A stretch of 64,000 nt of DNA, taken from the NCBI RefSeq assembly GCF_003019035.1, contig NZ_CP027447.1; one strand, given 5' to 3'. The translations under genes and the position numbers were made by a program. The notes under the pieces were generated by a model, which searched no databases, had not been told where the DNA came from, and saw only the letters and a list, made by a program, of their open reading frames with translations. This DNA comes from Escherichia coli. GTDB lineage: Bacteria > Pseudomonadota > Gammaproteobacteria > Enterobacterales > Enterobacteriaceae. Positions 4,560 to 41,956 of this stretch are shown here, piece by piece; the stretch's first letter is position 1, and every line of letters begins with the position of its first letter.

Positions 4560-5459
4560 TTATCCTCGTAAGGTCGCGGTTAACCCTTTCTGGCAGGCAT
4601 ACTGCTGGGCAAAGTCGAGCAGTTCTGGCGCATCAAGCGGTTTTTCCGGGGCGTCATAGGGCAGATTAAGTAAGTGATATTTGTTGATGCCTAGCGTGTG
4701 GTAGGGCAGGAAATGGATTTCGCCAACGTGCAGCTCGTCGGCGGCAAAATCGGTAATGGCTTTTACAGCGGTTTCGTCGGCATTAAAGCCCTGAATCAGC
4801 GGTACGCGGATGATGATTTTTTTCCCCGCCGCAGCGAGTTTTTTCAGATTATCCAGCACCCTGGCGGCGTTACCGTCGGTCCACTGTTTAAACGGCGCGT
4901 CGGCGACGTGTTTTAAATCGGCAAGAAACAGATCGATATAGGGCAGAGAAGGGGAGATATATTTCCACGGCACATGCAGACAGGTTTCTACCGCAGTATG
5001 AATGCCGGCCTCGTGGCTGGCTTGCAGTAGCGCCGTCGCCATTTCCGGCTGCATAAACGGTTCACCGCCAGAAAGTGTTAAGCCGCCGCCGCTGCGATCG
5101 TAAAACGGTTTATCGCGCAAAACGGTTGCCATGATCTCCTCAACGCTTTTCACTTCACCACACACGGTTAACGCCTGTGTCGGGCAGCAGTCGGTTAGCG
5201 CCGTCAGATGCTCCGGGGTTAACTTTTCCCGATGAATAAGCAAGCCATTCAGCGCGCGCTCAATCACGTCCGGCGCGGCCTTAGCGCACAGCTCGCAGCC
5301 TTCCAGACACAGTCGTGCGTCATACAACAGATCCTGCGTGCGGGCGCGGCTTTCCGGGTTCTGACACCAGCGGCAGCCCAGCGAACAGCCTTTAAGAAAT
5401 ACGACCGTGCGGATACCGGGGCCATCATGGGTCGAGTAGCGCTGAATATTGAAAATCAT
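4560..5459 (-). CDS. ybiY: Glycyl-radical enzyme activating protein (radical SAM)
   Basis: 299-aa ORF with cysteine clusters ([19 protein letters not shown]) typical of PFL activases; sits immediately upstream of ybiW on the same strand. Confidence 0.9.
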
Positions 5460-30963: not shown

Positions 30964-32016
30964 TTATGGGGTAATGCCAACCGCTGCCGCCACTTTGTCG
31001 CCATTTGGTAACGTTGCCAGTGGATTGAAACGGAGCGCCGTTTCCAAATGATCCAGTGCCAGATGTGCATAACGCATAGTCATTTTTATATCGTGGTGTC
31101 CGAGAATTTTTTGTAAGGCCAAGATGTTTCCACCCGACATCATGAAGTGCGCCGCAAACGTATGGCGCAGAACGTGTGTCAGTTGACCGCGAGGGAGAAC
31201 GATAGACGTTTTTTCCATCACGGATAAAAATTGAAAATAGCAGTCTGTGAAGAAATTGAACCCATCGAGCGCCATGATCTCTTCATAAAGCTCTTTACTG
31301 ATAGGGATGCTTCTGTTTTTCTTCCCCTTCGTTCTCACAAAGGTGATTCGGTACTTGGTGACCTGTGAGCGGGTAAGATTGATTGCTTCTCGCCAACGTG
31401 CGCCTGTACTTAGACATATTTTTACCACCAGTGCCAGAATTGGGTTCTGACGTTTGCAGTCAGACAGTAATTCGATGATCTGCTCATGTGTAAGCCATGC
31501 CATTTCCTTTTCTGCGATAGTGAATTTGCGCATCTTCTCTAATGGGTTTGGAAGTGTCCATTCACCCAGGCGGGAAAGTTCTCTGAAAACGCTGCTTAGA
31601 TGGCTTTGCTCCAGGTTAACAGTAACTGGGCTTGCTCCTTTCTTCCATTTTTCACTGAAGTAGATTTCACCAGTAAGGCGTTTATCGCGATAGTGAGCAA
31701 ACATTTTTGAGGTGAGATCGGTTGCAAGGGGATTTCCCAAGGCGTCAACCATCAACAGCAGCTTGTTGTAGACATGCTGTCCGGCAGTAAGAGATTTGCC
31801 ATGTAATTTGAACCATAGCTCAACCATATCTTTCAGTGTCCGACGATCCACTGATTCGCCCAGCCAGGGCTTTGCTTCTATTTCCCCCATGGTGTATCGC
31901 TCGAAGGCCAGTGCTTCGCCTTTGGTGGCGAATTGTTTACGCACACGACGCCCATTACGTCCGGCGGGGTAACATTCGCAAAGCCATTTCCCTGTGGTGA
32001 GTTTTCGTACTGCCAT
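30964..32016 (-). CDS. int: Phage tyrosine integrase (P2 Int-like)
   Basis: Start chosen at MAVRKLTTGKW; C-terminal catalytic region (HVLRHTFAAHFMMSGGNILALQKILGHHDIKMTMRYAHL) carries the tyrosine-recombinase R-H-R-Y signature. Confidence 0.88.
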   Translation of the reverse strand: MAVRKLTTGKWLCECYPAGRNGRRVRKQFATKGEALAFERYTMGEIEAKPWLGESVDRRTLKDMVELWFKLHGKSLTAGQHVYNKLLLMVDALGNPLATDLTSKMFAHYRDKRLTGEIYFSEKWKKGASPVTVNLEQSHLSSVFRELSRLGEWTLPNPLEKMRKFTIAEKEMAWLTHEQIIELLSDCKRQNPILALVVKICLSTGARWREAINLTRSQVTKYRITFVRTKGKKNRSIPISKELYEEIMALDGFNFFTDCYFQFLSVMEKTSIVLPRGQLTHVLRHTFAAHFMMSGGNILALQKILGHHDIKMTMRYAHLALDHLETALRFNPLATLPNGDKVAAAVGITP

Positions 32017-32204
32017 AAAAAATGCCCTCCAGTAGAGAGCATTTTCACTGTATGTATAACCAGTGTCAATGTATGAAATCCTACGACCATACATCTCACT
32101 GAAGCCATAATTAAGTTGGCTATTCTTTTTGCTATGTGAGCATGTAACTTTTGCGGTTAACCTGCGGCTCATTTTTATTTTAGGCGCAGATATAAAAGCA
32201 AAAG

Positions 32205-32396
32205 TTATCGTGAGTTTTTAGTACAGATTTTTTTGGATTTACTAATAGTTCCATCATTGCAAACGAATTTGCCATCTGAGGTACAGTGAGAAACACCTCC
32301 CTTTTTCCCTGAACAGGGATAATTTCTAGCATAGGTAGTTAGTGGGTTTAATAACAAAGAACATGAAAAAACCACAAAAAATACCTTACCAAGCAT
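32205..32396 (-). CDS. Small Cys-rich secreted protein of unknown function, between cI and int
   Basis: 63-aa ORF with strong RBS (GGGAGG); N-terminal signal peptide and four cysteines in the mature part; starts 16 bp after the cI stop on the same strand. Confidence 0.5.
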
Positions 32397-32411
32397 AGTT
32401 TCCTCCCGGTA

Positions 32412-32987
32412 CTATTTAACATACTTGACTGTTAAACTTATAATTTTACCAATTATTTCAATGTCTTCTATCTTGCATTCGAACGCTCTGTTTCCACCCT
32501 CGACGAAGATTCTTCCACCGGGTAAACGAGTAATGTCACGGATCGTTATTTCACCATCAATACTTATTACCCATTTACCATCACGTATATCATCAAATTC
32601 CTTATCACAAATAAATTCAGAATTATTATCTGTGATTACAAAAAGACTCTTGAATGCCGACGGTAGAAATCCCCTATCGAAAATATAAAAACCGTCTTCA
32701 CACAAGGCACCATCAGATAATACATATTTAGCAACTTCCATAGTATTTGTATTACCTGAAGTTTGCTTTGAACCATGTCCGGTTGTGAGCCAATTAAGCG
32801 AGGTGCCCGTTTCAAGGGCGCATTGGATTACCCATTCTGCTGGGAATGAGTCACGCATGTAGCGTGTGGCGAGTGTACTTTTAGAGATTCCTAAATGATC
32901 GCACAACGCCTGTCGAGTTTTGAATCCATAAGCTTCTACCATGCGCTCTATAGCGCCTCGTCCGCCTTTCTCCAAATTCATGGTCAC
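32412..32987 (-). CDS. cI: Prophage repressor CI (186 CI-like)
   Basis: 191-aa ORF; N-terminal HTH (LCDHLGISKSTLATRYMRD); divergent from apl/cII as in phage 186. Confidence 0.85.
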   Translation of the reverse strand: MTMNLEKGGRGAIERMVEAYGFKTRQALCDHLGISKSTLATRYMRDSFPAEWVIQCALETGTSLNWLTTGHGSKQTSGNTNTMEVAKYVLSDGALCEDGFYIFDRGFLPSAFKSLFVITDNNSEFICDKEFDDIRDGKWVISIDGEITIRDITRLPGGRIFVEGGNRAFECKIEDIEIIGKIISLTVKYVK

Positions 32988-33106
32988 TCCAAGTGAACTT
33001 TTATCTTGACGATTTCACTGTGCGATCGTATGTTTATGATGTTCACAAAATACAAACGATCCGTATTCGTCCTGATTAATCATCATTAAACGAGGAATGT
33101 TGCATC

Positions 33107-33328
33107 ATGAGACCTAACATTTCAATCACTCTTACCACGCCTCATGTGACTATTGAACGCTATAGCGAGCTGACAGGGCTGTCCATCGATACCATCAATG
33201 ACATGTTGGCTGACGGACGCCTTATCCGTCACCGTCTGCGCAAAGATAAAAAACGCGAAAAAGTGATGATCAACATAGCAGCCATGACCGTTGATGCGCT
33301 TTCAGAATGCAATCTAAACCTTAATTAG
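33107..33328 (+). CDS. apl: Apl/Cox-like excisionase and early regulator
   Basis: 73-aa ORF divergent from cI, first gene of the rightward early operon. Confidence 0.65.
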
Positions 33329-33360
33329 TTCGATTCTGAAATACATCAGAGGCATTGACC

Positions 33361-33870
33361 ATGTTTGATTACCAAGTTTCCAAACATCCACATTTTGATG
33401 AAGCCTGTCGTGCATTCGCACTGCGCCACAACCTGGTGCAACTGGCAGAACGTGCGGGCATGAATGTGCAGATTCTGCGGAACAAGCTGAACCCTGCTCA
33501 ACCTCATTTATTAACCGCACCAGAAATCTGGCTGCTTACCGATCTGACTGAAGATTCAACGTTGGTAGATGGTTTTCTGGCACAGATTCATTGTCTGCCA
33601 TGTGTACCGATTAATGAGGTGGCAAAAGAGAAACTGCCGCATTACGTCATGAGCGCAACTGCAGAGATCGGGCGTGTTGCAGCAGGTGCGGTATCTGGTG
33701 ATGTAAAAACCAGTGCCGGTCGTCGTGATGCTATCAGCAGCATTAACTCTGTAACACGACTGATGGCGCTGGCTGCTGTTTCATTGCAGGCCCGTTTACA
33801 GGCTAATCCTGCGATGGCGAGTGCAGTTGATACCGTGACTGGCCTCGGTGCTTCATTCGGTTTGCTGTGA
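33361..33870 (+). CDS. cII: CII-like lysogeny establishment activator (186 CII family)
   Basis: Start at [20 protein letters not shown] gives 169 aa; strongly resembles recalled 186 CII. Confidence 0.85.
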
Positions 33871-33877
33871 GGTGCTT

Positions 33878-34174
33878 ATGCTGACGAAAGAACCATCATT
33901 TGCATCGCTGCTGGTAAAACAAAGTCCGGCAATGCACTACGGTCACGGCTGGATCATGGGTGAGGATGGTAAACGCTGGCATCCGTGCCGTTCACAAGAT
34001 GAATTGCTGTCTGAATTGACCACGAGGAAACGGAGAAAGTCCAAATGTATGCGGCAGAAAATGAAGTGGTTTATCACTTTCGTTACAGAGGGGAGAATTA
34101 TTCAGTACCTGAAGATGATTTGCTCTGTTGCTATCCGTCGTTGTCGGGCGATGGTAGCTACTTTTTCACGCTAA
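33878..34174 (+). CDS. Fil-like early protein (possible host cell-division inhibitor); 3' extent uncertain
   Basis: ORF beginning MLTKEPSFASLLVKQSP at the position of 186 fil; its 3' part overlaps the next ORF in another frame. Confidence 0.4.
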   Translation: MLTKEPSFASLLVKQSPAMHYGHGWIMGEDGKRWHPCRSQDELLSELTTRKRRKSKCMRQKMKWFITFVTEGRIIQYLKMICSVAIRRCRAMVATFSR

Positions 34175-34269
34175 AGGATGGAACCTTTATACGTGGTGAA
34201 AAAGTACAAGAAGTGATGCGTATAAAGACATCACCTCTTGAACGTTATCGGCGAAATATTTATCGGTAA
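34045..34269 (+). CDS. Hypothetical early-region protein
   Basis: 74-aa ORF (MYAAENEVVYHFRYRGENYSVPEDDLL...); no motif recognised. Confidence 0.4.
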   Translation: MYAAENEVVYHFRYRGENYSVPEDDLLCCYPSLSGDGSYFFTLKDGTFIRGEKVQEVMRIKTSPLERYRRNIYR

Positions 34270-34508
34270 CGATCTATCAGTGTCTGTATCAGATGAGTGA
34301 ATTCTTGTTGTTTAACCGAACCTAAAGGAAGTTTGTTTAATTCTTCGCGGAGGAGCTCAAAAAATGCTGATTGATTTGCTGAGTCAGTTCGAAATAAGGA
34401 GTGGATCAGACCTGAAACAAGAATTCGTTGAACAGCAACCTCATCGCGAAGACTGGAGATCTCGTTTTCAAGTTGCTCTATACGCTCTCTTTCAACCGGG
34501 TTCAACAT
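34260..34508 (-). CDS. Hypothetical small protein, oriented against the early operon
   Basis: 82-aa ORF with an AGGA RBS 7 nt upstream of its ATG; charged, helical-looking sequence. Confidence 0.35.
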   Translation of the reverse strand: MLNPVERERIEQLENEISSLRDEVAVQRILVSGLIHSLFRTDSANQSAFFELLREELNKLPLGSVKQQEFTHLIQTLIDRYR

Positions 34509-34590
34509 TGATGATTCCTTCTAGCTATCAATATGTTGGTAATGGATCATATCAAAAATTTTTTAGTAGATGTGTTGTGGGGATGCATAA

Positions 34591-34932
34591 ATGGCTATTG
34601 AAAGCGCTGCGGCGACTGTTCCATTAAGCCCCGGCGAACGCCTGAATGGACTTAATCACATAGCGGAATTAAGGGCGAAAGTTTTTGGCCTGAATATTGA
34701 GTCAGAGCTTGAGCGGTTTATTAAAGATATGCGTGATCCACGGGATATCAATAATGAACAAAATAAACGGGCACTGGCTGCTATATTCTTTATGGCAAAA
34801 ATTCCAGCTGAACGTCATAGCATCAGCATTAATGAGCTGACCACTGACGAAAAGCGGGAGCTGATTAAAGCAATGAATCATTTTCGTGCAGTGGTGAGCT
34901 TATTTCCCAGACGGCTAACCATGCCGAATTAA
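34591..34932 (+). CDS. Hypothetical phage early protein
   Basis: 113-aa ORF in the early operon; no motif recognised. Confidence 0.5.
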   Translation: MAIESAAATVPLSPGERLNGLNHIAELRAKVFGLNIESELERFIKDMRDPRDINNEQNKRALAAIFFMAKIPAERHSISINELTTDEKRELIKAMNHFRAVVSLFPRRLTMPN

Positions 34933-34993
34933 CCAACTAATGAAATTAATGGCGTAAACCCGCCGGGCATCCCTTTATCTAAATTCAGGAGAA

Positions 34994-35233
34994 TTGATTA
35001 TGCGTAATATTGAAACCCTCTCGACCAAAACCGGACCGGATGACGCAGGGCTTAATATTTTACTGACAGAAGCTCGTCTGGAAGAACGCCGGGCAAGGGC
35101 TGAAGCAATGGCAGCTCGCCTTGATAGCCTGGCGTGTCATATCACATCCCGCCAGCTAACCCACGTCGAAGCGGCAGAACTGCTTCGTGTGACTGCTGAA
35201 GCAATCCAGAACGAAGCGCAGGAGATCCACTAA
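34994..35233 (+). CDS. Hypothetical phage early protein
   Basis: 79-aa ORF; Ala/Arg/Glu-rich. Confidence 0.5.
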   Translation: MIMRNIETLSTKTGPDDAGLNILLTEARLEERRARAEAMAARLDSLACHITSRQLTHVEAAELLRVTAEAIQNEAQEIH

Positions 35234-35460
35234 TGGCTGATGCAATGGATCTCGTACAGCAGCGCGTTGAAGAAGAACGCCAACGCCATATCCGTGCTGC
35301 CCGTGCCAAAACGCCGGGCGTGTCCCGCGTGCTTTGCATTGAGTGTGAAGCGCCAATTCCGCCAGCACGCCGCCGTGCCATTCCGGGTGTGCAGCTTTGC
35401 ATTACCTGTCAGGAAATCGCAGAGCTGAAAGGCAAACATTACAACGGAGGTGCTGTATGA
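35233..35460 (+). CDS. TraR/DksA-family C4 zinc-finger protein
   Basis: 75-aa ORF with CxxC-N17-CxxC (CIECEAPIPPARRRAIPGVQLCITCQ). Confidence 0.7.
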   Translation: MADAMDLVQQRVEEERQRHIRAARAKTPGVSRVLCIECEAPIPPARRRAIPGVQLCITCQEIAELKGKHYNGGAV

Positions 35461-36314
35461 GCACCATCCTGAAATGGGCGGGAAATAAAACTGCCATAAT
35501 GTCCGAACTGAAAAAACATCTTCCTGCTGGCCCGCGACTGGTTGAACCTTTCGCGGGTTCCTGTGCTGTGATGATGGAGACGGATTATCCCAGCTATCTG
35601 GTTGCGGATATTAATCCTGATTTAATCAACCTCTATAAAAAGGTTGTCGCTGATTGTGAATCGTTTATATCTCGCGCCAGAGTTTTATTTGAGAACGCAA
35701 ACAGGGAGATGGATTATTACAACATAAGGCAGGAGTTTAATTACTCAACTGAAATTACTGATTTCATGAAAGCGGTATATTTCCTGTATCTCAATCGTCA
35801 CGGTTACCGTGGTTTATGTCGCTATAACAAGAGCGGGCATTTCAACATTCCCTACGGTAATTATAAAAATCCGTATTTCCCTGAAAAAGAAATTCGCGCA
35901 TTTGCAGAGAAAGCCCAGCGGGCAACGTTTATCTGCGCCAGCTTTGATGAAACGCTGGCGATGCTGCAGGTGGGGGATGTGGTGTATTGCGATCCGCCTT
36001 ATGACGGCACGTTTTCCGGTTATCACACTGACGGCTTCACTGAAGATGACCAGTATCATCTGGCATCCGTTCTTGAGCATCGGTCATCAGAAGGACATCC
36101 GGTCATTGTTTCTAACAGTGACACATCCCTGATCCGTTCGCTGTATCGCAATTTTACTCACCACTACATCAAGGCAAAACGCAGCATCGGCGTAGCAGCT
36201 GGTGAGAGTAAATCTGCAACAGAAATCATCGCTGTTTCTGGGGCACGCTGCTGGGTGGGATTTGATCCTTCGCGTGGCGTGGATAGTTCTGCTGTGTACG
36301 AGGTGCGTGTATGA
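35457..36314 (+). CDS. DNA adenine (N6) methyltransferase, Dam-like, phage-encoded orphan
   Basis: Start at [14 protein letters not shown]-binding EPFAGSCAV and catalytic DPPY motif ([10 protein letters not shown]). Confidence 0.8.
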
Positions 36315-38725
36315 GTCATGACGATATGAGCAACTCTAGCGGCTTTAACGAGGCCGCTGCATCATTTTCATGGAACGGCCCGAAAAAGGCCATTAACCCT
36401 TATCTGGACCCGGCGGAAGTTGCGCCGGAGTCTGCACTTTCAAACCTGATCACTCTGTATGCTGCCGATAACGAGCAGGAACAACTGCGCCGCGAGGCAC
36501 TGAGTGAGCAGGTCTGGGAGCGTTATTTCTTTAATGAATCCCGTGATCCTGTCCAGCGCGAAATGGAGCAGGATAAGCTCATTAGCCGGGCAAAGCTGGC
36601 GCATGAGCAGCAGCGTTTTAATCCAGACATGGTCATTCTGGCTGACGTCAACGCCCAGCCTTCCCATATCAGCAAGCCGCTGATGCAACGTATTGAATAC
36701 TTCAGCAGCCTGGGCAGGCCAAAGGCTTATTCCCGCTATTTGCGTGAGACGATTAAGCCATGTCTGGAACGACTGGAGCATGTACGCGACAGTCAGCTAT
36801 CCACTTCTTTTCGCTTTATGGCAAGCCATGAAGGGCTGGACGGCCTGCTGATCCTGCCTGAAATGAGTCAGGATCAGGTGAAACGCCTGTCTACCCTTGT
36901 CGCTGCGCATATGAGCATGTGTCTTGATGCCGCTTGTGGTGATTTGTACGCCACCGATGATGTTAAGCCAGAAGAAATCCGCAAGACATGGGAAAAGGTG
37001 GCAGCGGAAACCCTACGTTTGGATGTCATCCCGCCTGCGTTTGAGCAACTCCGTCGGAAAAGAAACCGCCGTAAACCAGTGCCCTATGAACTCATTCCGG
37101 GCTCGCTGGCGCGTATGCTGTGCGCCGACTGGTGGTATCGGAAATTGTGGAAGATGCGTTGCGAATGGCGGGAAGAGCAGTTGCGTGCTGTCTGCCTGGT
37201 CAGCAAAAAAGCATCTCCCTATGTCAGCTATGAAGCTGTGATGCATAAACGTGAGCAGCGCCGTAAGTCGCTGGAGTTTTTCCGTTCTCATGAACTGGTG
37301 AACGAAGACGGAGACGCGCTGGATATGGAAGATGTGGTAAACGCCAGCTGCAGCAACCCGGCGCATCGCCGCAATGAGATGATGGCCTGTGTTAAAGGTC
37401 TGGAGCTTATCGCGGAAATGCGCGGTGACTGCGCCGTTTTCTACACCATTACCTGTCCGTCACGTTTCCATTCCACGCTCAATAACGGCAGACCCAACCC
37501 GACCTGGAAAAACGCGACGGTAAGACAAAGCAGCGATTATCTGGTCGGTATGTTTGCTGCATTTCGTAAGGCGATGCACAAAGCCGGGTTGCGCTGGTAT
37601 GGCGTGCGGGTGGCTGAGCCGCATCACGACGGCACAGTTCACTGGCACCTGTTGTGTTTCATGCGCAAAAAAGACCGCCGCGCCATTACTGCATTGTTGC
37701 GTAAGTTTGCTATCCGTGAAGACCGCGAGGAGCTGGGCAATAACACGGGGCCGCGCTTTAAGTCTGAGTTGATTAACCCGCGCAAAGGTACGCCAACAAG
37801 CTACATCGCGAAATACATCAGTAAGAACATTGACGGGCGTGGTCTGGCTGGCGAGATCAGCAAGGAAACGGGGAAATCCCTGCGTGATAATGCTGAATAC
37901 GTTAATGCCTGGGCGTCTCTGCATCGTGTTCAGCAATTCCGCTTCTTTGGCATTCCGGGGCGTCAGGCTTACCGCGAACTGCGATTGCTGGCTGGTCAGG
38001 CGGCAAGGCAACAGGGGGACAAAAAAGCAGGTGCGCCGGTACTGGATAACCCGCGCCTTGATGCAATCCTGGCTGCTGCTGATGCTGGTTGTTTTGCCAC
38101 CTACATCATGAAGCAGGGCGGCGTACTGGTTCCCCGCAAATATCACCTGATCAGAACCGCTTATGAAATCAACGAAGAGCCGACCGCCTATGGCGATCAC
38201 GGCATTCGTATTTATGGCATCTGGTCACCCATTGCAGAGGGCAAGATCTGCACTCATGCAGTGAAGTGGAAAATGGTTCGTAAGGCCGTTGACGTTCAGG
38301 AGGCGGCAGCCGACCAGGGCGCTTGCGCCCCTTGGACTCGTGGCAATAACTGTCCCCTTGCTGAAAATTTGAACCAACAAGGGAAAGACAAATCAGCTGA
38401 TGGGGACTCCAGAACGGATATTACCCGTATGAATGACAAGGAGTTGCACGATTACCTGCACAGTATGAGCAAAAAAGAGCGCCGGGAACTGGCTGCAAGG
38501 TTACGCCAGGTGAAACCGAAACGGCGTAAAGACTACAAACAGCGAATTACAGACCATCAGCGACAGCAGCTCGTCTATGAACTGAAGTCCAGGGGATTTG
38601 ATGGCAGCGAGAAAGAAGTCGATTTGCTCCTTCGCGGCGGCAGTATTCCGTCAGGAGCAGGCCTGCGTATCTTCTATCGGAACCAACGTCTGAAGGAAGA
38701 TGATAAGTGGCGGAACCTGTATTAA
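36311..38725 (+). CDS. Replication initiation endonuclease (P2 gpA-like, HUH rolling-circle family)
   Basis: 804-aa ORF; HUH motif (HWHLLCF) and catalytic tyrosine pair (SYIAKYISK). Confidence 0.88.
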
Positions 38726-38794
38726 TTACGCGGGTTAACAATTCGTGCTCTTAATAATACCAGGCATATCAGGCCGATGAACGTAAAAAAACGT

Positions 38795-38837
38795 TTTACA
38801 TCAGTAAGATTATTATATACTGTAAATATAAACAGTG
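38795..38837 (+). promoter_or_regulatory. SOS promoter: -35 TTTACA, 17-bp spacer, -10 TACTGT overlapping a LexA box (taCTGTaaatataaACAGtg, 38818..38837)
   Basis: CTGT-N8-ACAG with an AT-rich spacer read directly; 40 bp upstream of the ATG at 38878. Confidence 0.7.
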
Positions 38838-38877
38838 GTTATGTATACAGTATTGTTTTGGTGTCATAGGAGGAAAG

Positions 38878-39066
38878 ATGCAGGACTATTTTTTGGAGTC
38901 TTTGAAGCTCCAGCGCATTGATTTTTTTCTTAAGCTTGTAGCGGCTAGTGAGTGTAGTGATGAAGAGAAGGGGCTGGCTCTGCAGTGGGTTTCTGAATTG
39001 ACTGATGAACTCATGGCAAAAATCAGAAGCCACGAATACAACCGCTCAATGGATGTCATCAGCTGA
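38878..39066 (+). CDS. SOS-regulated small protein (possible antirepressor, Tum-like by position)
   Basis: 62-aa ORF with strong RBS (AGGAGG); first gene downstream of the LexA box. Confidence 0.5.
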   Translation: MQDYFLESLKLQRIDFFLKLVAASECSDEEKGLALQWVSELTDELMAKIRSHEYNRSMDVIS

Positions 39067-39076
39067 GGTGACTTTT

Positions 39077-39310
39077 ATGCGCATTGAAATAATGATCGAT
39101 AAAGAGCAGAAGATTAGCCAGTCTACCCTGGACGCCCTTGAATCCGAGCTTTACCGCAATCTGCGCCCCCTGTATCCCAAAACGGTAATTCGCATTCGCA
39201 AAGGTAGCTCTAACGGTGTGGAACTAACCGGACTGCAACTGGATGAAGAAAGAAAACAAGTGATGAATATTATGCAGAAGGTGTGGGAGGACGACAGCTG
39301 GCTGCATTAA
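39077..39310 (+). CDS. DinI-family protein
   Basis: Start at MRIEIMIDKEQK (RBS GAGGTGA); 77 aa; resembles recalled DinI including the acidic C-terminus (WEDDSWLH). Confidence 0.75.
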   Translation: MRIEIMIDKEQKISQSTLDALESELYRNLRPLYPKTVIRIRKGSSNGVELTGLQLDEERKQVMNIMQKVWEDDSWLH

Positions 39311-39502
39311 GAAACGTTGCCCCCAGGAGGATTCATTCTGATGGGGGCTAGTTTGGGCAATGAGTGAAATAAGGCGTAAGGTGGGCGGTTATTTTGATAA
39401 GTGATCGTCCGCTTTGTGTCAGAAGCAGAAGTGGGAGTGTCTGAGACTCTCTAAAAGTTGATGATTCACTTACAAAACCATTTTCCTGATGGATGCTTAC
39501 AC

Positions 39503-39838
39503 TTACGAATGATCATTCTGTTTAGTCTTCATGAGAAAATCCCGAATCTTTGCCAAGTTTGAATTTTCGGGGATTGAATCCATGTACGGATCACGCTCAA
39601 ACACTAATTGCTCAGATTCAACGAAAGCCTGCCACTCTACTGGGTCTAGCTCAAATCCCATTGCTGTCATATCACTTTCATCTTCCCCCTCGATCCAGTG
39701 GACTAAATAAAACAATTCATCATCAGGAGAATCATCCTCACCATCAACAATATCAACATCGGTTACAGTGATACGTAGGGTGGGATCGATTTTTGAGACA
39801 TAAATTCCTAACTGTGGTATAGGGGGAATATTGTTCAT
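39503..39838 (-). CDS. Highly acidic small protein of unknown function
   Basis: 111-aa ORF with GGAG RBS; very Asp/Glu-rich (e.g. DVDIVDGEDDSPDDELFY, EGEDESD). Confidence 0.55.
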   Translation of the reverse strand: MNNIPPIPQLGIYVSKIDPTLRITVTDVDIVDGEDDSPDDELFYLVHWIEGEDESDMTAMGFELDPVEWQAFVESEQLVFERDPYMDSIPENSNLAKIRDFLMKTKQNDHS

Positions 39839-40303
39839 GGAAACTCCTTTTATTGGTGTTTGCTATTTGAATAAAAATACGCCAAACAGAGTGTTAACTG
39901 TGAATATGGAAAGAATCGTTGTAAGTACCCCGCTTAGGTGTCCCATTCTATTTTAGAGGTTCTCGTGCATATGGATTATGTTATCTGAAAGTTAACTTCC
40001 GCTTCCCGTTCACAGCGAACATTCATCTTTGTAAACCCGTATGATCCGTTTTTCAAGTGGCCATTCAGATACGGATTTTCACTTCCTTGACAGTGCATGA
40101 CTATGCTGCATGAAATCGCATGATCGATTGAGGATCGTCTTTGCTCAGATCCGCCAGAACTGGCGGGCTTTTGCTCATGTCATGCATGTGCATGAAAACC
40201 ACTGCATAAAGCGGGCAGGCGTGGCGGGGATACGAGCGCGCGCTTATTACTTTGATAGTACTCGGGTTATAATATGGATGACTATCTATCTCGGAGAATG
40301 TGC

Positions 40304-41956
40304 ATGTCATTGGACTATATTAAAGAACAGTTGTCAGACTTTATTTCATCTGCAGAACCTGAGGTAATGGCTATTCAGGGTGAATGGGGGATTGGGAAAA
40401 CCTATACTTGGAATACTTTCTTAAAGGAAAATAAAAATAAGATTGCATTTAATAGATATAGTTACGTCTCTCTTTTTGGTGTTAATTCATTGGACGCATT
40501 AAAATATTCCATCTTTGAAAATACAATTACAAAAGATTTTATTGGAAATAAACCTAATTTAAAAACAGCAACACAAAATACAAAGGGACTTCTTGAATCC
40601 TGCACTAGAAAGACCGCTCGTTTGTTAAAAGAAACACCTGTTGTGAAAAATTTCGCTACGACACTTGAGTCAATGTCATTTATGTCAATTACTAATGTTA
40701 TTGTAGTCATAGATGACTTAGAAAGACGTGGTAAAAATTTAGAAGTGAAAGATGTCTTAGGGTTGGTTTCTTTATTGAAAGAACAAAAAAATTGTAAGGT
40801 GGTTCTTTTACTTAATAATGGGACAAGTGGTATGGATGATTACTCCACTTATAAAGAAAAGGTTATTGATAGAGAGATTACCTATAACCCTACGCCAGAA
40901 GAATGTGCAGCTATAGCATATAAAAATAATTCTGATGTTCATAAATTATTAAGCAAATACTCCATTTCTCTGGGTATTAAAAATATTCGGATACTGAAAA
41001 AAATAGAGCGGTTTTTGCTAGCCTTGTTACCTGCTATTAACGTTAATTTTGATAAAATTGCAAATGAAGTCGCACGCTCCTTAACTTTGTATTGTTGGAG
41101 TCATTACGCATTTACTCCAGATGGAGATGTACCATCATTGGAATATATTAGAAATATGAGAAATATCTATATGCGTGATGAAAAAGAGGATGGAAAAGGA
41201 AAAAAATGGCTTAATACTTTGCTTATATATGGTTATAAAAAAACAAACGAACTTGATGAAGTCCTTATAGACATGGTTAAGCATGGATATATTGATATGA
41301 ACAATTTTCAAAGGCAAGTAAGTCTAAGAAATGATGAACTTATCCGTGATAGTAAGCGAGGTTCACTGTTTGAAGCATGGAAGCTTTTCTATAATTCATT
41401 TGAAGATAACCGAAATCAGGTTGTTGATAATCTATATCAAGCGGTGGTTGGTGGGATAGAGTATGTAACTCCAAGTGACTTGGATAGTGTTGTCGGACTG
41501 TATAGAGATTTAGATGAAAATATTAAAGCAAGTGAATTAATAAGTAAATTTATTAATTACGGCAATGATGCTCTTAAGGAATATGTCCAATCTATTTACA
41601 TGAATGTTCATCCTATAAAAGATGCTGAGTTAAAGTCAAAAATCCAAGATTATTCTATTACTTTAAATCTGGATGGTTCTATAAAGGATGTTCTAATAAA
41701 ATTATCAAGTCAGAATGGTTGGTCTGATAGGCACGAGGAAATATTGGATGCTGCCTCAGAGGATGACTACTATGATTTATTTAAAAAAGTCATTCTTGAA
41801 GGTGGTGATTCAATAATAGCCACTGCTCTTAAGTTTGGTGGGTATAGCAATGGTTCAGATAGAATGAAACGCATCGGAGAAAAAGCGAGAAATGCTTTGA
41901 TAAGAATTGGAAATGAGTCGAAGATTAATAAAATACGTGTTAGACGGTATTTGTAA
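40304..41956 (+). CDS. KAP-family P-loop NTPase (alternative start at 40274)
   Basis: Walker A of KAP type (GEWGIGKTY) and Walker B (VIVVIDDLERRG); AT-rich codon usage unlike the flanking phage genes; lies at the P2 old/tin position between A and Q. Confidence 0.75.
   Translation: MSLDYIKEQLSDFISSAEPEVMAIQGEWGIGKTYTWNTFLKENKNKIAFNRYSYVSLFGVNSLDALKYSIFENTITKDFIGNKPNLKTATQNTKGLLESCTRKTARLLKETPVVKNFATTLESMSFMSITNVIVVIDDLERRGKNLEVKDVLGLVSLLKEQKNCKVVLLLNNGTSGMDDYSTYKEKVIDREITYNPTPEECAAIAYKNNSDVHKLLSKYSISLGIKNIRILKKIERFLLALLPAINVNFDKIANEVARSLTLYCWSHYAFTPDGDVPSLEYIRNMRNIYMRDEKEDGKGKKWLNTLLIYGYKKTNELDEVLIDMVKHGYIDMNNFQRQVSLRNDELIRDSKRGSLFEAWKLFYNSFEDNRNQVVDNLYQAVVGGIEYVTPSDLDSVVGLYRDLDENIKASELISKFINYGNDALKEYVQSIYMNVHPIKDAELKSKIQDYSITLNLDGSIKDVLIKLSSQNGWSDRHEEILDAASEDDYYDLFKKVILEGGDSIIATALKFGGYSNGSDRMKRIGEKARNALIRIGNESKINKIRVRRYL

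Follow-up and report, generated by a model that had tools for sequence, protein, structure and literature searches.

The window analysed here, a stretch of 64,000 nucleotides of Escherichia coli contig NZ_CP027447.1 (assembly GCF_003019035.1), carries downstream of the replication gene A of a P2-like prophage a LexA-controlled two-gene operon which is, very probably, the module by which a P2-like prophage of the 186/Fels-2 type is induced in the SOS response; it corresponds to the p95-tum operon of 186 with tum split into tumA and tumB. As such, the feature is an already known DNA-damage switch of the 186 p95-tum kind. The SOS operon p95-tum of phage 186 was reportedly described in Lamont 1989, Brumby 1996 and Shearwin 1998. 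The module sets the moment at which a very common prophage of E. coli, Salmonella and Klebsiella quits the chromosome. Of 5426 complete E. coli genomes, 1124 contain it, B-lineage laboratory strains such as BLR(DE3) among them. The 62-aa gene is labelled in databases as ‘hypothetical protein’ or, sometimes and wrongly, as ‘levan regulatory protein’, so that naming it tum or tumA is a useful correction of the annotation rather than a discovery. Beyond the known switch, it is conceivable, and we propose it tentatively, that the lineage of Fels-2 and of the E. coli HS prophage is wired to the SOS response at two further points, a double operator on tumA and a LexA-repressed int promoter, and combines them with a near-invariant TumA acting on the conserved N-terminal domain of divergent CI repressors. 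Neither the double operator on tumA nor the LexA-repressed int promoter is described in the literature accessible to us, some key papers lying outside that scope.

The region between 31 and 43 kb of the window represents the early region of a P2/186-like prophage and is laid out as follows.

about 30964–32016, minus strand: int
between int and cI: an ORF of 63 aa with a secreted-looking product
32412–32981, minus strand: cI, encoding a 186-type CI repressor (PF07022 and PF16452), the presumed target of TumA
33107–33328: apl/cox
33355–33870: cII
between cII and gene A: a Dam methylase gene
36311–38725: replication gene A

The immunity and replication module, comprising CI, Apl/Cox, CII, Dam and gene A, is thus of the 186 type, and the operon starts at position 38795, downstream of the end of gene A at 38725, in the same order as in 186, PSP3 and Fels-2. 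Its regulatory elements are contained in the 152-bp gap 3′ of gene A and are followed by the two genes.

38795–38800, plus strand: −35 hexamer TTTACA (direct reading; present in 85 of 85 relatives)
38801–38817: spacer of 17 bp
38818–38823, plus strand: −10 hexamer TACTGT, doubling as the left arm of LexA box 1
38818–38837, unstranded: LexA box 1, TACTGTAAATATAAACAGTG, matrix score 23.8 bits
38833–38852, unstranded: LexA box 2, CAGTGGTTATGTATACAGTA, matrix score 15.4 bits, rank 3 in the window
38868–38873, plus strand: Shine-Dalgarno sequence AGGAGG of tumA, 4 nt 5′ of the ATG and kept in relatives
38878–39066, plus strand: tumA, the gene of the 62-aa antirepressor (assigned by homology and the published genetics of the HS prophage)
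39055–39072, plus strand: small hairpin that covers the stop codon of tumA and the Shine-Dalgarno sequence of dinI (from a terminator-like scan)
39065–39070, plus strand: dinI Shine-Dalgarno sequence GAGGTG, overlapping the tumA stop codon
39077–39310, plus strand: DinI-family gene (the tumB equivalent), 77 aa, with the ATG at 39077 as the most likely start
39319–39348, plus strand: G+C-rich hairpin GCCCCCA...TGGGGGC with a weak U-tract (−21.8 kcal/mol, z = −2.5)

The original prediction, which was made from the sequence alone, had proposed a −35 element, a 17-bp spacer, an SOS box, a ribosome-binding site, a 62-aa ORF and a DinI-family ORF, and each of these was recovered at its predicted position. 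Its further claim that this is the architecture of 186-type phages is borne out as well, given that promoter, LexA box, small gene and DinI-like gene are placed as in 186 p95-tum and PSP3 tumA/tumB. An Rfam scan of positions 31800–40300 returned no credible RNA family.

The putative promoter, a p95-like TTTACA-17-TACTGT, is called on the basis of its homology with 186 p95, annotated in the GenBank record of 186 as TTCACA-18-TACTGT with the LexA site beginning at the −10, and of its conservation. A consensus promoter scan of positions 38600–39600 reported nothing, because TACTGT fits TATAAT at just three of six positions. Conservation was assessed in 85 relatives, namely, 80 IMG/VR contigs together with Fels-2, SEN8, SopEPhi, 500465-1, ST437-OXA245phi4.1 and Yersinia MLG42. 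The scan of viral contigs with the TumA alignment kept only relatives that are 98%–100% identical, a set which is good for the variation of columns and not for depth; more distant relatives were taken from phage records. TTTACA-17-TACTGT is invariant in all 85 relatives, whereas the sequence of the 17-bp spacer and the leader vary and the flanks are otherwise diverged. The CTGT arm of box 1 is likewise present in all 85 and the ACAG arm in 82. Read from this alignment, the conserved −35 hexamer and LexA boxes amid variable columns are a clear phylogenetic footprint. A single strong LexA box also occurs at the equivalent place in 186, PSP3, ESSI-2 and ev129, where the surrounding DNA is unalignable.

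With one occurrence in the window against 0.54 expected by chance, the bare motif CTGT-N8-ACAG proves nothing by itself. Candidate sites were scored with a symmetrised 20-bp LexA matrix, for which 28 LexA sites of E. coli served as the training set (Lewis 1994; Fernandez de Henestrosa 2000); these themselves score 12.9–26.5 bits. The weight-matrix check that had been suggested for the SOS box came out in its favour: box 1, with its 23.8 bits, is the best of 63,981 positions, and its score was reached neither in 100 nor in 300 dinucleotide-preserving shuffles.

LexA box 2, which overlaps box 1, was absent from the original prediction. The chance of a site with its score is about 1.5e-6 per position, or 7e-6 when the AT-rich local composition is taken into account. 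The 16-bp cores of the two boxes (38820–38835 and 38835–38850) share one base, an arrangement also found in the colicin-type double overlapping SOS operator, such as that of ColE1 cea (Lu and Chak 1996, as cited in PMC2994835). The resemblance extends to the sequence: the 35-bp double operator is identical in register at 29 of 35 positions to positions 5061–5095 of ColE1, the cea operator, whose place upstream of cea was confirmed in the record of the ColE1 plasmid. Both operators have GTGG as the non-consensus left arm of their second box, and the promoter-proximal ColE1 box scores 15.4 bits, equal to box 2. Among the 85 relatives, the ACAG arm of box 2 is kept in 85 and GTGG in 79, and the adjoining spacer and 3′-flank columns are the most variable of the region. 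The operator of the window differs from its colicin counterparts in driving a phage antirepressor instead of a colicin and in that its box 1 overlaps the −10, and the two boxes contrast with the single LexA box of 186, PSP3, ESSI-2 and ev129. Colicin double operators are reported to be bound by two LexA dimers, with tight repression and late induction as the result (PMC2994835). By analogy, two LexA dimers may occupy both boxes cooperatively in the prophage, in which case expression would be delayed and tightened. If so, the colicin-like double operator would delay and sharpen the firing of the antirepressor.

The product of the first gene, TumA, is assigned to phrog_698 (E = 5.9e-38), with further matches to phrog_8554 (E = 1e-8) and phrog_1993 (E = 2e-3). 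Residues 1–70 of 186 Tum match the same three families in the reverse order, that is, phrog_1993, the family of PSP3 TumA (E = 2e-23), phrog_8554 (E = 3e-12) and phrog_698 (E = 6.7e-6). Direct comparison of the TumA alignment with Tum 1–70 by hhalign gave E = 3.1e-5 and a probability of 73% over 42 collinear columns, which include a common loop cysteine and an A-L-x-x-[VIL]-x-E motif. BLASTP produced no alignment between TumA and 186 Tum, and searches with TumA against Pfam, NCBIfam and the PDB sequences returned nothing meaningful. Judged by these moderate profile matches (E about 1e-5), TumA is a remote homologue of the N-terminal, antirepressor half of 186 Tum. The AlphaFold2 model of TumA is a two-helix hairpin (mean pLDDT 86.8; helices at residues 2–23 and 28–61), for which Foldseek retrieved from the PDB generic helical hairpins only, with E above 3. 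Homologues in Cronobacter ESSI-2 and ESSI2_ev129 are just 41%–49% identical and retain the strong LexA box. Comparison with four diverged relatives yielded a dN/dS of about 0.06 at a dS of about 1, that is, strong purifying selection. The notion that the small ORF is a mere leader peptide for dinI was rejected on account of this value and of ESSI-2 and ev129, in which the DinI gene is missing.

The presumed target of TumA is a CI repressor of the 186 type, which matches the structure of 186 CI (PDB 2FJR) with E = 1.2e-30 and is 33% identical to 186 CI. No self-cleaving S24 peptidase was detected in it above threshold, the match to Peptidase_S24 covering a partial stretch with E = 0.022. As a 186-type repressor with no S24 domain above threshold, CI would not be expected to undergo lambda-like self-cleavage, so that an antirepressor would be needed; the predicted non-cleavage follows from family membership. 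The pairing of the two proteins is uneven: TumA is 97%–100% identical across phages with CI proteins that are just 36%–59% identical to each other. In these CIs, the N-terminal helix-turn-helix domain (about residues 8–72) is strongly conserved, with about 29 invariant columns that include SKST[LM]A[NT]RY[LM]RD, and the C-terminal domain is very divergent. The simplest reading of this pattern is that TumA targets the N-terminal domain of CI and could act across prophages of the lineage. Were this the case, co-resident prophages of the lineage with divergent CIs could cross-induce each other.

Experimental evidence on the small gene comes from the P2-like prophage of E. coli HS, in which TumA (62 of 62 residues), Apl (73 of 73), CI (187 of 189) and the DinI-like protein (76 of 77) are identical or nearly so to those of the window. 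The promoter and both LexA boxes are as in the window, apart from slight base differences in the spacer of box 2 and in the leader, and the HS prophage differs in the cargo downstream of the DinI gene. In this strain, an in-frame deletion of tum, with the start and stop codons fused, was constructed (Phollow preprint, PMC11195241); the primers map to the ATG and TGA of the 62-aa ORF, and their sequences are found at positions 38859–38880 and 39064–39086 of the window. The tum deletion and the lexA(Ind-) allele each abolish mitomycin-C-induced lysis and viral foci (PMC11195241). Hence, the prophage-induction test that had been proposed for the module was in essence already done in E. coli HS, where both tum and a cleavable LexA are needed (PMC11195241). 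The HS experiment establishes that tum is required for induction; the mechanism is outside what this result covers, and the authors word it as inhibition by Tum of ‘pro-lysogenic regulators’ (PMC11195241).

The mechanism is suggested by related phages. 186 Tum is an anti-CI factor which sequesters CI and is expressed from the LexA-controlled p95 (PMC7708051). Tum has been described as an antirepressor fused to a DinI-like half, with tum split by a stop codon in Fels-2 and PSP3, and the upstream half in PSP3 is the antirepressor according to a personal communication cited in the same paper (PMC3121763). No publication on direct TumA–CI binding for this TumA family was found in the literature examined. 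By analogy with 186 Tum, TumA probably binds CI physically and blocks its binding to DNA. The original proposal of the small protein as a candidate antirepressor is supported by the homology with the N-terminal part of Tum and by the need for the identical HS protein in induction, the binding to CI being the step that is transferred from 186. In the lysogen, host LexA would sit on the double operator, with box 1 over the −10 and box 2 over the transcript start, and keep the promoter shut. Upon DNA damage, RecA-stimulated self-cleavage of LexA would open the promoter, and the transcript would yield TumA, a 62-residue two-helix protein, together with the DinI-like protein. TumA would then inactivate the 186-type CI without cleavage, probably by binding it and so keeping it off the DNA in the manner of 186 Tum, whereupon the early lytic promoter would be released. 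The DinI-like protein probably tunes the activity of the RecA filament or the timing of induction and would not be the trigger.

The assignment of the second gene to the DinI family, as originally predicted, is secured by a match to PF06183 over residues 14–76 (E = 1.2e-22) and to E. coli DinI (PDB 1GHH, E = 3.6e-6), the alignment to the latter including ...QKVWEDDSW, with the acidic C-terminal helix ending in WED..W. The protein is 41% identical to residues 71–145 of 186 Tum. Its score of 43 bits, against the NCBIfam equivalog cut-off of 111 for chromosomal DinI, marks it as a paralogue of that protein. The gene is present in all 80 IMG/VR relatives and evolves with a dN/dS of 0.08–0.12. Its product probably tunes RecA; in Gifsy prophages, non-polar dinI deletions have no significant effect on induction (PMC3121763). 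Besides the window, Fels-2 and, with another stem sequence, ST437phi4.1 can form the small hairpin of 39055–39072, which does not fold clearly in SEN8 and MLG42; it might, weakly, be taken to couple the translation of dinI to that of tumA. The G+C-rich hairpin at 39319–39348 was not called by a strict terminator scan and is a possible partial terminator of the operon, the partial terminator t95a of 186 being found at the equivalent place.

Three other accounts of the operon deserve consideration. TumA might trigger induction without binding CI, for instance, via Apl, CII, a host factor or CI proteolysis. That TumA proteins at least 97% identical are found with CIs only 36%–59% identical could mean a target other than CI, and the preprint on HS names only ‘pro-lysogenic regulators’ as Tum targets (PMC11195241). 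Nevertheless, we consider this account improbable: TumA shares homology with the N-terminal part of 186 Tum, a CI-sequestering anti-CI factor (PMC7708051), PSP3 TumA has been reported as an antirepressor (PMC3121763), and the conserved N-terminal domain of the CIs that are paired with near-identical TumA offers a conserved target. Inactivation of CI by TumA through binding is, thus, the reading that we retain.

Even less probable, to the point of being very hard to sustain, is the view that the operon serves chiefly to modulate the SOS response of the host. DinI would then be the product that matters, the small ORF would act as a leader or as a means of coupling, and the tum deletion would owe its phenotype to lost dinI expression. 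This view draws on the hairpin that takes in the stop codon of tumA and the Shine-Dalgarno sequence of dinI, which could couple translation, and on the 186 GenBank record, in which short DinI-like Tum forms are annotated as modulators of SOS induction. Against it, the purifying selection on tumA (dN/dS 0.06) acts on the protein, the LexA box and a TumA homologue are kept in ESSI-2 and ev129, where the DinI gene is lacking, the HS tum deletion leaves the dinI ribosome-binding site in place, and induction of the Gifsy prophages was not significantly changed by the non-polar dinI deletions (PMC3121763). Finally, the LexA-like sites and the promoter could be chance matches in AT-rich intergenic DNA, as the expected number of bare motifs per window (0.54) and the negative consensus promoter scan would allow; this is effectively refuted by matrix scores that were never reached in shuffles, by the conservation of the sites amid variable flanks in the 85 relatives and in distant lineages, and by the dependence of HS induction on lexA (PMC11195241). 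An antirepressor operon under LexA control, therefore, stays the preferred interpretation.

Among known systems, phage 186 (NC_001317) shares with the window the site 3′ of gene A, the TACTGT −10 within the LexA box, the succession of an antirepressor domain and a DinI-like domain, an uncleaved 186-type CI and SOS-dependent induction. It differs in having one fused Tum of 146 aa instead of two genes (62 and 77 aa) and a single nearly perfect LexA box instead of two overlapping ones; furthermore, the antirepressor part is only remotely similar, and 186 orf97 is replaced in the window by other cargo. A small upstream gene followed by a DinI-like downstream gene is found in PSP3 (tumA/tumB) and Fels-2 (STM2728/STM2726.1), and the PSP3 record annotates both tumA (‘UV induction of prophage’) and tumB. 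The Fels-2 region shares about 97% DNA identity with that of the window and has the same double operator; its CI is just 39% identical to that of the window. PSP3 TumA belongs to a different family, phrog_1993, which is closer to 186 Tum; its operon is preceded by one LexA box, and the CI of PSP3 is longer and of another kind. A comparable logic is seen in the LexA-repressed dinI-gfoA/gftA operons of the Gifsy prophages, which encode a DinI homologue and a small antirepressor directed at an uncleaved repressor (Lemire et al. 2011, PMC3121763). The Gifsy operons differ in that dinI comes first, in the reversed order, in their unrelated antirepressor and repressor families, and in their lambdoid background.

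The second strongest LexA-like site of the window lies on the other side of cI, next to int.

32041–32069, minus strand: promoter-like TTGACA-17-GAAAAT with a LexA box in the spacer (match 10/12)
32046–32065, minus-strand spacer: LexA box CACTGTATGTATAACCAGTG, 22.2 bits, rank 2 in the window

The site is situated about 25–30 nt upstream of the likely start codon of int (ATG at 32016) and looks like an SOS-inducible int promoter, as far as can be told from its sequence. Between the box and the int ATG, there is a hairpin followed by a T-run which includes the ribosome-binding site, and the stem differs between two variants. E. coli HS has a box of 22–25 bits on the int side, as do three further E. 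coli prophages in which cI and int are separated by unrelated cargo (genes for a DUF4041 protein, an AAA ATPase and a SNIPE-associated protein). Neither Fels-2 nor 186 has such a box, and in PSP3 the region holds only a weak site of 13.5 bits; in Fels-2, 186 and PSP3, there is almost no gap between int and cI or the preceding ORF. A pattern scan recovered at least 120 viral contigs with the int-side module, 114 of them with the int start 30–33 nt downstream, and these contigs have at least 19 unrelated distal flanks. The bases of the box were fixed by the search pattern, so that the scan is partly circular and shows the linkage of the module to int, not the conservation of the box. No description of a P2-like int with a LexA/SOS box was found in the literature searched, key papers being outside its scope. 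If the interpretation is correct, the LexA-repressed int promoter would be a unit beside a variable cI–int cargo slot which makes Int for excision independent of the cI transcript.

The antirepressor TumA (62 aa) encoded by the SOS-controlled tum operon is at least 97% identical across phages whose CI proteins, the 186-type repressors presumed to be its targets, share only 36–59% identity. In the CI proteins paired with near-identical TumA, the N-terminal helix-turn-helix domain is highly conserved, whereas the C-terminal domains are very divergent. The near-constancy of TumA, combined with the conservation of this N-terminal domain, suggests that TumA targets the latter and that it could work across prophages of this lineage.

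The region between cI and the minus-strand integrase gene int, which starts at 32016, contains the following features:

32205–32396, minus strand: 63-aa ORF between cI and int, with a signal peptide-like N-terminus, matching NCBIfam PRK10040
32041–32069, minus strand: near-consensus promoter-like site TTGACA-17-GAAAAT, with its spacer filled by a LexA box
32046–32065, in the spacer of this minus-strand promoter: int-proximal LexA box, 22.2 bits (20-bp weight matrix built from 28 E. coli sites), ranking second in the window
32014–32040, minus strand: hairpin followed by a T-run containing the int ribosome-binding site, between the LexA box and the int ATG

The 63-aa ORF is annotated as 'YdcA family' in some genomes, and its slot is filled in other prophages by DUF4041, AAA-ATPase or SNIPE-associated genes; given these differences in gene content, the cI–int interval appears to form a second site for variable cargo. 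E. coli HS and three prophages whose cargo at this position is unrelated all keep the int-proximal LexA box, while the comparison of the cI–int region revealed none in Fels-2 or 186, and the corresponding region of PSP3 carries only a weak LexA site (13.5 bits). With int starting approximately 25–30 nt downstream, the promoter-like site and the embedded LexA box constitute a candidate SOS-inducible int promoter. The leader hairpin, which occurs in two variants, GCTCTCTACTGGAGGGCATTTTTTATG and GCCCTCTGATATGAGGGCTTTTTTATG, could be either an attenuator or a stem sequestering the int ribosome-binding site.

Another potential regulatory structure and a further cargo slot, the latter separating the tum operon from the portal gene, lie farther along the prophage:

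39055–39072: hairpin GTCATC-AGCTGA-GGTGAC followed by TTTT, spanning the stop codon of tumA and the Shine–Dalgarno sequence of dinI
39503–39838, minus strand: acidic 111-aa protein, adjoining the next gene on the opposite strand
40274–41956, plus strand: 560-aa P-loop (GxxGxGKT) protein with a match (E = 3.7e-25) to PDC-S49, a candidate defence family in PADLOC

The junction hairpin, which could couple translation of dinI to that of tumA, is also present in ST437-OXA245phi4.1, with a different stem sequence, and no clear equivalent was found in SEN8 or MLG42. The acidic protein matched no family, and relatives carry different cargo in this slot, including an orf97-like gene and genes for one TIR-domain and one DNA-binding protein.

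One IMG/VR relative (IMGVR_UViG_2634166506_000002) is a natural promoter-replacement variant: approximately 90 nt upstream of tumA, unrelated G+C-rich sequence takes the place of the −35 hexamer and the first LexA box of the double operator, and only the right half of the second box is retained, so that tumA might be expressed differently. Public records (P0021, MK416009, MK422454) list tumA (38878–39066) as a 'hypothetical protein' or under the erroneous name 'levan regulatory (domain) protein', and some gene callers lengthen it to 84–106 aa via an upstream frame.
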